Source of the DNA: Bacteriovoracia bacterium
GTDB lineage: Bacteria > Bdellovibrionota > Bacteriovoracia > Bacteriovoracales > Bacteriovoracaceae
Direction of reading: 5' to 3'
DNA: 64,000 bases
Assembly (NCBI GenBank): GCA_046570105.1
Contig: JBKHVI010000009.1
Location: forward strand, 10,010 to 74,009
Made by a program: the position numbers and the translations under genes. The notes below the pieces were generated by a model. It made no database searches, had not been told where the DNA came from, and saw only the letters and a program-made list of their open reading frames with translations. This document shows, piece by piece, positions 29,277 through 31,393 of this stretch. The first letter of the stretch is position 1. Each line of letters opens with the position of its first letter.

Positions 29277-30539
29277 ATGGATAAATTACTCGTCACAGGC
29301 CCTGGTCGCTTAAACGGAACTGTCACTGTATCGAGCGCTAAGAACGCGACTCTTCCGATATTGGCCGGCGCTCTTTTATTTGAAACTCCGGTGAAGCTTG
29401 CCGACATTCCTAAACTCAACGACGTCGCCACCATCATCAAGCTGCTTGAGAGCATGGGTGTAAAAGTTGAGCGTGATGGCAAGAACATGACCCTTGATAG
29501 CTCGAACGTGCATAACTTAGTCGCTGACTATGCTCTGGTTAAAACCATGCGCGCATCGGTTTTGGTTTTGGGACCACTTCTCGCGCGTTTTGGTAAAGCC
29601 AAAGTTTCTCTACCCGGCGGTTGTGCCATTGGTGCACGTCCGGTGGATATTCATCTCACCAATCTAGAAAAGATGGGTGCTAAGATTCAAATCGAGCAGG
29701 GTTATATTTTAGCCGAGTGTGAGCGCTTGCAAGGTTGTGAGTTATCACTTTCTTTCCCATCAGTCGGTGCCACTGAAAATTTAATGATGGCCGCTGTCTA
29801 CGCTGACGGTGAAACGATTATTGAAAACGCCGCTCGTGAACCAGAGATTGTCGATCTCGCTAATTTCCTCATTCACTTTGGAGTGACAGTGGAAGGTGCG
29901 GGGACTTCACGCATTCGTATAATTGGAACAAACACACAAAAGAAATATGCAGCGACGAAACCTTATCGCCCGATCGGGGATCGCATTGAAGCGGCGACGT
30001 TTATTATCGCCGGTCTCATGGCGAACTCAAATATTGTCGTGAATGGCTTTGAGCCATGGACATTAGAAGCTGTGCTTGAAACCTTAGAGAAGATGGGTGC
30101 GAAACTCACGCGTTTAGAAGACGGAGTAGAGGTTCATCCCTCAGGTCGCTTGAAAGGCGCGGTGATTGAAACAGCTCCTTTCCCAGGATTCCCAACTGAT
30201 GTTCAGGCACAGATGATGGCACTGATGTGTCTCTGTGATGGAAACTCGATTATTACAGAGCAAATTTTTGAAAATCGTTACATGCACGTACCAGAACTTA
30301 TTCGCATGGGCTGTAAAGTAACACTCAAGGGCAATGCCGCTTTGATTGAAGGTGTGGAATCACTTTCAGCTGCTCCGGTTATGTGCACCGATCTGCGCGC
30401 CTCAGCTGCATTGGTGCTGGCCGCGCTCACGGCTCATGGACAATCAGATATCCAGCGCATCTATCATCTGGATCGTGGTTATGAAGATCTTGAAGCGAAG
30501 TTTAAAGCGTTAGGTGCAAAGGTTGAGCGAGTTAAATAA
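29277..30539 (+). CDS. murA: UDP-N-acetylglucosamine 1-carboxyvinyltransferase
   Basis: KNATLPI, LPGGCAIGARP, SVGATEN, PGFPTD and DLRA motifs. Confidence 0.98.
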   Translation: MDKLLVTGPGRLNGTVTVSSAKNATLPILAGALLFETPVKLADIPKLNDVATIIKLLESMGVKVERDGKNMTLDSSNVHNLVADYALVKTMRASVLVLGPLLARFGKAKVSLPGGCAIGARPVDIHLTNLEKMGAKIQIEQGYILAECERLQGCELSLSFPSVGATENLMMAAVYADGETIIENAAREPEIVDLANFLIHFGVTVEGAGTSRIRIIGTNTQKKYAATKPYRPIGDRIEAATFIIAGLMANSNIVVNGFEPWTLEAVLETLEKMGAKLTRLEDGVEVHPSGRLKGAVIETAPFPGFPTDVQAQMMALMCLCDGNSIITEQIFENRYMHVPELIRMGCKVTLKGNAALIEGVESLSAAPVMCTDLRASAALVLAALTAHGQSDIQRIYHLDRGYEDLEAKFKALGAKVERVK

Positions 30540-30575
30540 CCCGCAACCTTTAAGCATTTGCATAAAATCCCGCTC

Positions 30576-30795
30576 CCCATTAAAATAAAAAAACTGGTGA
30601 GGGATAGAACCCCATGATGCCGGCATGGGCCCTCACCAGAAATCATCCTTACATTCATAAGGGATTTTTGATAAGGCCATAGAGCAACTCACGGGCCACC
30701 TCCTAAATTCTTAAGACATTAATTTGTTTGAACTCCGAACACTTTGCGTTGGAAAATATTCATCGCGCGATGGAAAAAAACGGACGTCAAAGCTG
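30576..30795 (-). repeat. tandem unit 1: structured sRNA / small-ORF transcription unit
   Basis: Homologous to 30817-31035 (period 240-241 bp). SD AGGAGG, GTG-start ORF 30633-30692 (MSCSMALSKIPYECKDDFW), three hairpins, and CTGGTGAGGG/CCCTCACCAG stem followed by T7 on the minus strand. Confidence 0.85.
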
Positions 30796-30816
30796 AGATT
30801 GCGCAAAATTAAATTA

Positions 30817-31035
30817 CCCCTTAAAATAAAAAAACTGGTGAGGGATAAACCCCATGGGCAGTACATGGGCCCTCACCAGAAATCATCCTTACATCCGTAA
30901 GGGATTTTTGATAAGGCCATAAAGCAACACATAGGCCACCTCCTAAATTTGTAAGCCAAAGAAAATGCAATACTTCGAATGCAATGTGTTGGAAGAAATT
31001 GACCACACGAAGGAAAAAATTGGCTAAACTAGCTC
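30817..31035 (-). repeat. tandem unit 2: structured sRNA / small-ORF transcription unit
   Basis: SD AGGAGG, ATG-start ORF 30873-30932 (MCCFMALSKIPYGCKDDFW), same hairpins and terminator as unit 1. Confidence 0.85.
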
Positions 31036-31057
31036 CATAAAATACTGAGGAGCAGTG

Positions 31058-31393
31058 ATGGACGATTGTTTGTTTTGCAAAATTTTTCAAGGCAAGATTC
31101 CCTCGAAAAAAGTCTATGAAGACGACAACGTCTTTGCTTTTTTAGACATCAATCCTTTGGCGAAAACCCATATTCTTTTTATTCATAAAAAACATACTGA
31201 AAACGTTAATGGACTCTCGACCATTCACGTGGGGCAAGTCTTCACAGCGATTAAAAATTTCACCACCGGAACTGATTTAGAAAAGAAAGGTTTCCGTGTC
31301 GTCACCAATTCAGGCGCTGATGCCTGTCAGACGGTTTTTCATGCGCACTTTCATGTCTTGGGTGGTGAGAAGCTCGGTGGCTTTGGAAAATGA
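31058..31393 (+). CDS. hinT: HIT family nucleotide-binding protein
   Basis: CLFCKI, AFLDINP and QTVFHAHFHVLGG motifs. Confidence 0.92.
   Translation: MDDCLFCKIFQGKIPSKKVYEDDNVFAFLDINPLAKTHILFIHKKHTENVNGLSTIHVGQVFTAIKNFTTGTDLEKKGFRVVTNSGADACQTVFHAHFHVLGGEKLGGFGK

Follow-up and report, generated by a model that had tools for sequence, protein, structure and literature searches.

Two tandem units at the murA-hinT junction

The stretch of DNA that was analysed, referred to here as the window, is 64,000 nucleotides long, and the locus of interest within it is an intergenic region flanked on the left by a plus-strand open reading frame (29277..30539) which we take to be murA-like. The right flank is a plus-strand gene of the HIT family (hinT-like; Pfam PF01230) at 31055..31393, on the 3' side of which lies a gene of the chloramphenicol acetyltransferase family (PF00302; 31390-32016, plus strand), with similar open reading frames in that place in relatives. 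An earlier note on this DNA had described a tandem pair of ~240-bp units in this region, and the pair is real: the units are spaced by 240-241 nt and are 91% identical over 95 nt and 81% identical over 206 nt. The left edge requires correction, however, as the first unit begins not at 30576 but further left, at the -35 box of a promoter (30558).

Read on the plus strand, unit 1 opens with a sigma70-type promoter, TTGCAT-17-TAAAAT (30558..30586; -35 box 30558-30563, -10 box 30581-30586), followed by an A7 discriminator. The RNA predicted from this promoter would be ~77 nt long (30593..30669, plus strand; fold z -3.41), with its ends placed by the promoter and by a U-run, and would consist of a hairpin B, an AAAUCA linker, a hairpin A and the U-run. 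Hairpin B (30594..30639), which is defined by the fold and by covariation, has a 10-bp outer stem, a 7-nt bulge and a 6-bp inner stem, and carries a copy-specific loop with a conserved GC (30617-30623); the same hairpin is the terminator stem of an RNA predicted on the minus strand. Hairpin A (30646..30664) has a tetraloop that reads AUUC on the plus strand, as it does in 37 of 46 copies of the family, and GAAU on the minus strand, and its G·U wobbles are biased towards the minus strand; it likely terminates the plus RNA and, in the minus RNA, forms the hairpin at the 5' end. The predicted minus RNA would be ~86 nt long (30587..30672; fold z -3.21), running from a +1 at 30672 to a U7 tract at 30587-30593. 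Upstream of it are a sigma54-type -24/-12 motif, TGGC-N7-TTGC (30684..30698, minus strand), and, ~88 nt upstream of the -24 element, a putative enhancer box (30772..30784, minus strand), 4th of the 36 intergenic sigma54-like sites in a ranking described below. The sigma54-type motif overlaps the supposed start codon of a 19-codon open reading frame (30633..30692, minus strand) which is preceded by a Shine-Dalgarno-like AGGAGG (30699-30704) and which we judge to be incidental.

Unit 2 repeats this arrangement, with a sigma70-type promoter, TTGCGC-17-TAAAAT (30799..30827, plus strand), and a predicted sigma70 RNA of ~76 nt (30834..30909, plus strand; fold z -5.37; ends predicted) containing hairpin B (30835-30879, loop 30857-30863) and hairpin A (30886-30904). 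On its minus strand are a predicted sigma54 RNA of ~85 nt (30828..30912; fold z -4.55), running from a +1 at 30912 to a U7 tract at 30828-30834, the sigma54-type motif TGGC-N7-TTGC (30924..30938), a putative enhancer box at -88 (31012..31024; 3rd of the 36 sites) and the corresponding 19-codon open reading frame (30873..30932, AGGAGG at 30939-30944), likewise judged incidental.

Much of the anatomy given in the earlier note is confirmed. On the minus strand an AGGAGG, six nucleotides and a start codon (GTG or ATG) are present in both units, the TGA lies within the 10-bp outer stem and is followed by T7, and the inner CCCATG/CATGGG stem carries the loops CCGGCAT and TACTGCC. These loops do differ between the units, but they are not swapped, as had been suggested, and a central GC is common to both. 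A GGCC..GGCC hairpin, which does occur in some minimum-energy folds, lies outside the predicted transcript and within the sigma54 promoter motif. The proposal that the RNA is structured holds, as each of the cores has a more stable fold than any of 200 shuffles, whichever strand is taken (z -3.2 to -5.4).

A family with a covarying fold and copy-specific loops

The core of the family is ~85 nt long and is present in five copies in this genome. BLAST (E < 1e-6) detects it in six of ten other genomes of the genus, and a search with covariance models, which the earlier note had recommended, finds the family in 15, and later 20, of 151 Bacteriovoracaceae genomes, two of the 20 looking spurious. 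A strand-neutral pattern which requires neither pairing nor the loop motif has matches in 45 of 237 Bacteriovoracaceae genomes and in 7 of 69 genera (a reversed control gives two matches), and nearly all of its matches show an inverted repeat and a GC loop. The family provides more than 70 natural variants with covariation. In the alignment fitted to the model 92.8% of cells are paired and both partners vary in 21 of 25 pairs, figures to be read in the knowledge that such an alignment leans towards its model; in a plain MAFFT alignment both partners vary in 10 of 15 predicted pairs. The loop of hairpin B reads GC[AG] in 70 of 74 copies, compared to 39.8 expected.

A search of Rfam yielded nothing at or near gathering score, with only weak off-domain matches far below it, and for nine homologue loci it returned two tRNAs only. 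With its covarying fold, its five copies here and no Rfam match, the element agrees with the earlier suggestion that the units belong to a multicopy family of structured RNAs not described before, with loops specific to each copy. No published account of the family was found in the literature, and the main text of two ncRNA-discovery papers contains no Bdellovibrio or Bacteriovora term, while their supplements could list the motif. The family is uncatalogued, mobile and, on sequence grounds, non-coding.

The family varies in several respects. In G005 there are four tandem units of 131 nt, each comprising little beyond promoter and core, and two of the five copies in the present genome (C17 and C32) have neither the sigma54 motif nor an intact hairpin A. 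The divergent members L138 (in G004) and L159 (in G011) keep the promoter, the linker and the AUUC hairpin, and have a hairpin B that is expanded into a branched structure.

The samples behind the counts in this work differ slightly. Three of 49 model matches without an anchor were dropped from the promoter count, and three weak or partial matches (L156, one L134 copy and one L034 copy) were omitted from the counts of fold energy, sigma54 motif, open reading frame, and U-tract and loop. L146, which lacks an anchor, was omitted from the sigma54-motif count onward, and four later matches were added there. The spurious match e43 was dropped from the clustering, loop-duplex and hydrophobic-ORF analyses; the model matches in G170 and G158 and the pattern match in G172 look spurious and remain in the tallies.

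Distribution and mobility

In five of the ten other genomes of the genus murA adjoins the HIT gene directly, so that the junction is empty; it holds one unit in G006 and two in the present genome, and no target-site duplication is evident there by eye. The number of copies per genome ranges from 0 to 8, the maximum being found in G350, and no match was found in the complete genome G111 or in the 100%-complete G345, both of which come from carrier genera. No fixed partner gene emerges, as no neighbouring family recurs among 62 flanking proteins, and the downstream genes vary in family and orientation.

Outside the Bacteriovoracaceae the family is found in three of 124 genomes, from two other families of the phylum, and all three carry it in one ~1.15-kb cassette of ~99% identity (L169:8256-9410 in G280, L170 in G277 and L171 in G226). 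This cassette bears a lincosamide-nucleotidyltransferase-like gene that falls below the curated Lnu cut-offs, and in G280 it lies between 154-nt direct repeats, with ISCR, floR-like, tet(G), mph and aadA-like genes nearby. In genus g56 copies are located in cargo islands, some of them ~245 nt from degenerate tRNA-His-like remnants, and there is no general linkage to tRNA islands, a tRNA or remnant being present within about 1.5 kb in only 16 of 76 loci. The islands at L172 (G069), L202 (G350), L205 (G322), L170 (G277) and L171 (G226) contain degenerate repeats that align to the reverse complement of tRNA-His and are also punctuated by a recurrent terminator-like repeat, with an integrase gene at L172:1447-2550; the pattern as a whole looks like tandem cassette accretion at tRNA-His. 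Phage and plasmid collections yielded no match to the family, six pattern matches in viral contigs were rejected on the ground that the family profile does not recognize them, and four of 70 metagenome loci found with the pattern are members (E < 1e-4). The unit is best described as a patchy, accessory and mobile module that was inserted into the murA-hinT junction.

Transcription signals on the plus strand

Of 46 copies, 42 have a TAnnnT box 5-9 nt upstream of the stem, and 40 have in addition a TTG 16-18 nt further up, where 2.9 would be expected; the search model that was used to collect the copies does not extend to the -35 box. The promoter is kept in 26 of 27 copies after clustering at 75% identity, and its consensus is retained while the spacer sequence diverges. 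The stem and T7 tail which the earlier note had read as a minus-strand terminator do have that character, but the tail doubles as the discriminator of the plus-strand sigma70 promoter, a second role that had been missed. Because this promoter is conserved, a second RNA complementary to the first is predicted. On the plus strand hairpin A is followed by a U-run, with four or more U in 6 nt, in 55 of 57 copies, and the plus RNA is accordingly predicted to start at the foot of hairpin B and to end at hairpin A and the U-run. At L036:2684-3044 (G003) the sequence past the U-run can pair with the 3' arm of hairpin A to form an alternative hairpin that might alter plus-strand termination.

Transcription signals on the minus strand

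The minus-strand U-tract (at least 5 T in 6 nt past the stem) is present in 43 of 46 copies, compared to 13 of 575 other sigma70-like sites in the genome, a count that is partly circular in that both the model and the pattern favour the run. The wobble pairs of hairpin A favour the minus strand. Pairs with G·U on that strand exceed those with G·U on the opposite one by 33 to 11, by 28 to 7 after clustering at 80% identity, by 16 to 6 at 75% (p 0.053, which is borderline) and by 21 to 2 among 33 copies collected with the strand-neutral pattern. The bias elsewhere is modest in the inner stem (19 to 9) and does not reach significance in the outer stem (8 to 5), and the folding energy of the whole RNA does not pick a strand, the plus strand being lower in 17 of 43 copies.

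In this genus the TGGC-N7-TTGC motif is present with 8 of 8 positions in seven copies, 7 of 8 in two and 6 of 8 in two, at 27-33 nt before the GAAU loop and with a variable N7; the background rate of an 8/8 match is 0.035% per segment scanned. The copies that carry it are confined to this one genus and represent about five lineages. The standard -12 rule, applied to the sequence, places +1 12 nt after the -12 GC, at 30672 and 30912, both positions lying 3' of the start codons, on the boundary of the conserved core. RpoN is present in the genome, along with 12 matches to PF00158 (enhancer-binding proteins). Among intergenic sites a spacing of 7 nt is more frequent than any other (36 sites, compared to 12-21 for other spacings), and genome-wide the motif is not enriched (149 vs 125-163). 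When an enhancer-like matrix built from the copies in other genomes is used to rank the 36 sites, the three sigma54 copies of this genome are 2nd to 4th, all with the box at -88; the ranking is partly circular for the pair in the window and independent for C103.

In copies that do not have the sigma54 motif a TGnTA box is found at the matching distance in 30 of 45 cases, compared to 3.0 expected, and in none of ten sigma54 copies. The TGnTA boxes that were inspected do not have a T at -7 and so do not represent a standard sigma70 box. A FliA promoter, which has the form TTAAG-N16-CCGATA in the consulted part of PMC3627812, was considered for TGnTA and rejected, as no convincing -35 box could be seen by eye. 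Matches to an IHF site near the element are within the null.

Two observations concern sigma54-like sites elsewhere. A TGTC-N9-GACA palindrome occurs upstream of many intergenic sigma54-like promoters (G000 C1, C2, C9, C12, C16, C47, C82 and C122) and likely marks an enhancer regulon distinct from the box at the RNA element. The best match to the element's own upstream box is at a sigma54-like site in L220:1-1100 (G000:C17 near 38792), before a gene for a putative HExxH metallopeptidase (a weak Pfam match) and one for a His-rich membrane protein resembling a cation-efflux transporter. This site is a lead to the inducing signal.

Proposed mechanism

The reading that we tentatively favour is that each ~240-bp unit specifies two fully complementary RNAs of ~80 nt, transcribed from facing promoters, with the sigma70 plus RNA acting as the antidote to an inducible minus RNA in a type VIII-like arrangement. 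The components of this reading differ in strength. Judging from the signals conserved on each strand, both strands are probably transcribed; antisense neutralization is fairly likely; and a toxic or addictive function is possible but somewhat doubtful. Toxicity is the least supported part, and what suggests it is the selfish-looking distribution.

In the proposed mechanism an enhancer-binding protein and sigma54 would, in this genus, activate transcription of the minus RNA, which has the more constrained fold and would be the inducible effector, and the sigma70 plus RNA would be the standing antidote. Cognate RNAs would meet loop to loop, with the copy-specific loops insulating siblings at this first step, after which the pair would zip into a full duplex to be cut by RNase III, an enzyme that is present in the genome; the convergent polymerases would also interfere with each other. 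Predicted loop duplexes range from -6.2 to -11.0 kcal/mol for cognate pairs vs -1.2 to -6.2 kcal/mol for non-cognate pairs, but since non-cognate RNAs, too, form highly stable duplexes over their full length (-74 to -130), any insulation would have to be kinetic. Minus RNA in excess would engage a cellular target through its GAAU and YGC loops. This target is probably a protein, a conclusion reached by elimination only, because no trans mRNA target stood out and neither Hfq nor Ro60 was found: a seed scan of 2817 translation-start regions did no better than 11 shuffled controls, which is a small control, and the 88%-complete genome yielded no match to Hfq or to Ro60 (TROVE).

A more far-reaching version, which we regard as doubtful, is that the family is a mobile, protein-free, multicopy addiction or switch module of a new type VIII-like family, in which co-extensive ~80-nt RNAs, the effector under sigma54 (or TGnTA) control and the antidote under sigma70 control, are kept apart from their siblings by orthogonal kissing loops, and which either stabilizes cargo and resistance cassettes or gates dormancy in predators whose genome yielded no Hfq.

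Alternative readings

An enhancer-controlled sigma54 promoter would be unusual for a selfish toxin and would suit a regulator of the host, which counts against the toxin reading; a pair that regulates without being toxic comes close to that reading in plausibility, if in itself rather unlikely. The same two RNAs would then act on behalf of the host, as sibling sRNAs that titrate a protein by means of their conserved loops, and the opposite RNA would turn them on or off in response to a sigma54 signal or to the predator life cycle. All of the evidence for two promoters fits such a pair, as do the covarying stems and the conservation of the GC[AG] and AUUC loops; the tandem amplification in G005 to four promoter-bearing units suggests an effect of dosage, and an enhancer-like box is shared with the sigma54-like site before the putative metallopeptidase gene. 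The distribution is harder to reconcile with a host function, since the family is patchy within genera, was not found in the complete genomes, has no conserved neighbour among the 62 flanking proteins, and travels in cargo islands and a resistance cassette. The candidate protein partners fare no better: CsrA is present but just 5 of 46 copies have a GGA loop, and the 88%-complete genome gave no Hfq or Ro60 match.

It is improbable that the plus sigma70 RNA is the sole gene, the minus-strand U-tract being then an A-rich discriminator or the terminator of a neighbouring gene, and the sigma54 and TGnTA motifs serving something else. The plus promoter is indeed the most universal signal, the U-run after hairpin A is nearly constant, and at some loci, such as C17, a minus-strand gene ends just upstream. 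The window, however, has no upstream minus-strand gene to terminate, the sigma54 +1 coincides with the core boundary, and the wobbles that favour the minus fold by 21 to 2 leave A·C mismatches in the plus terminator.

The same preference for G·U over A·C, which is a signature of RNA, speaks against a function at the level of DNA. On that view the unit would be a short mobile element, non-autonomous, or a site for recombination, comparable to a REPIN, a MITE or an att site; it would spread in trans, and its promoter would be incidental. In favour are the insertion into an operon junction, the proximity (~245 nt) of some copies to degenerate tRNA-His-like repeats in islands, one of them with an integrase, and the eight Y1-transposase-like matches in the genome. 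The promoter consensus is kept while the spacer diverges, however, only five copies occur here and none is on a contig with a Y1 match, a tRNA or remnant is near only 16 of 76 loci, and no target-site duplication is evident by eye at murA-hinT, so that we consider a DNA element still less probable than a lone plus-strand gene.

The 19-codon open reading frames translate as VSCSMALSKIPYECKDDFW (30633-30692, minus strand) and MCCFMALSKIPYGCKDDFW (30873-30932, minus strand), each followed by a stop. The observation in the earlier note that the RNA is more constrained than the peptide is upheld: three of the four internal codon differences between the two are non-synonymous while the stems covary, and the open reading frame with its Shine-Dalgarno sequence is kept in only four of 46 distinct copies, namely the window pair and their orthologues in G007, having already been lost from the orthologous copy in G006. 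Among homologues all three reading frames are used, or none, most copies having no open reading frame, and a hydrophobic small open reading frame is found on the minus strand within 450 nt in none of 75 loci. The start codon lies inside the sigma54-type motif, with the predicted +1 18 nt downstream of it, so that what had been seen as an occluded start region is reread as a promoter. These results tell against the dual-function RNA or peptide-based type I system that the note had considered, and the open reading frame is judged to be incidental rather than a conserved feature of the family, with the proviso that its absence from the other members of a set of 46 or 75 loci shows only that no peptide is conserved. 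It is very improbable that the minus RNA serves as the message for a peptide of 19 aa, be it an atypical type I toxin or the product of a dual-function RNA, and is kept silent by the plus RNA, as the intact AGGAGG, 6-nt spacer, start and 19 codons in both units and the G007 pair, together with an antisense promoter, are all that such a peptide would explain.

Returning to the favoured pair of sense and antisense RNAs, its interest lies in the fact that very few RNA-only toxin-antitoxin pairs are known (SdsR/RyeA and CreTA) and that little is known of RNA regulation in predatory bacteria. The question can be tested directly, given the many natural variants (more than 70), the candidate promoters mapped on each strand and the predicted ends. 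If the module is addictive, it could explain the persistence and movement of accessory and resistance cassettes among predators, and its copy-specific loops would provide orthogonal antisense switches of natural origin; should it instead be a host regulator, it would tie a sigma54 enhancer signal to an RNA-binding target.

Comparison with known systems

Several classes of element were considered and rejected. A CsrA sponge of the CsrB/RsmY type would require a GGAU loop, which is present in 5 of 46 copies compared to 37 with GAAU, although CsrA itself is present. A sibling sRNA that pairs with mRNAs with the help of Hfq is disfavoured by the lack of an Hfq match in the 88%-complete genome and by a seed scan no better than 11 shuffles. 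For a tRNA-derived, tRNA-like or Y RNA, the best local alignment to the 29 tRNAs of the genome is within the shuffled range and there is no TROVE match; relaxed ARAGORN tRNA calls across the region were taken as noise. The REP/REPIN-RAYT class is not indicated by five copies of which none is on the eight contigs with Y1 matches, and no Y1 family was seen among the flanking proteins scanned. A riboswitch or leader attenuator does not agree with downstream genes that vary in family and orientation.

The type I loci ibs/Sib, ldr/Rdl and Fst consist of multicopy tandem units with a short antisense RNA that has its own promoter, with copy-specific loops and a patchy spread. The toxin-antitoxin-like layout proposed in the earlier note is found here in the tandem units, the copy-specific loops and the opposing promoter signals, and the family resembles these loci in being multicopy, tandem and patchy; a candidate antisense promoter has its consensus in 40 of 46 copies. 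It differs from them in having neither a conserved small open reading frame nor a hydrophobic peptide, whereas the type I class, as defined in the consulted part of PMC8610362, is set apart by its small, usually hydrophobic toxin; here the 19-aa open reading frame is present in 4 of 46 copies, and a hydrophobic small open reading frame on the minus strand in 0 of 75 loci.

Qrr1-5, GlmY and Pxr are short sigma54-dependent RNAs under enhancer control, which are conserved core regulators without a full-length antisense partner, and Qrr needs Hfq. The present RNAs are likewise short and multicopy, with predicted enhancer-controlled sigma54 signals, but they have a predicted full-length antisense partner, no Hfq was found, and there is no Rfam match. 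With CreTA, in so far as the source describes it, the family would share a small RNA toxin and an RNA antitoxin, as proposed here; it differs in that no CRISPR-Cas gene is present among the flanking proteins scanned and that there is no conserved mini-ORF with a Shine-Dalgarno sequence and start codon.

In the related predator Bdellovibrio bacteriovorus, APsRNA1-7 and merRNA are described, in the part of PMC3627812 that was consulted, as single RNAs, 98-655 nt long, that have no homologues elsewhere and of which several are driven by FliA. Like these, the present RNAs are intergenic and structured and are predicted to use an alternative sigma factor; going by those descriptions, they are set apart by their predicted pairing and by occurring outside their own family only in three of 124 genomes by way of one cassette.

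The closest parallel is SdsR/RyeA of Escherichia coli, in which, according to the sections of PMC6610125 consulted, a sigma70 and a sigmaS promoter converge and interfere with each other and RNase III takes part in the decay of the duplex, and which is classed as a type VIII toxin-antitoxin system in the corresponding section of PMC8610362. Homology is not indicated, there being no Rfam match at or near gathering score and no sequence match to SdsR or RyeA. The predicted RNAs here are co-extensive at ~80 nt, while in E. coli, on the same partial account, RyeA encompasses the shorter SdsR; in place of sigmaS there are a sigma54 motif and an enhancer-like box; and the present family is mobile, with up to eight copies and copy-specific loops, and with no Hfq and no mRNA targets found. 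What the two would have in common, as far as those sections go and as predicted here from promoter signals, is a pair of opposite-strand small RNAs of which one depends on sigma70 and the other on an alternative sigma factor, a convergent layout that would allow interference and duplex decay, and a design with no protein toxin. Candidate promoter and terminator signals are conserved on both strands, as would be expected of opposite-strand genes, and the family, while not filed as type VIII, is likened to that type in its layout and, by analogy, would work like it.
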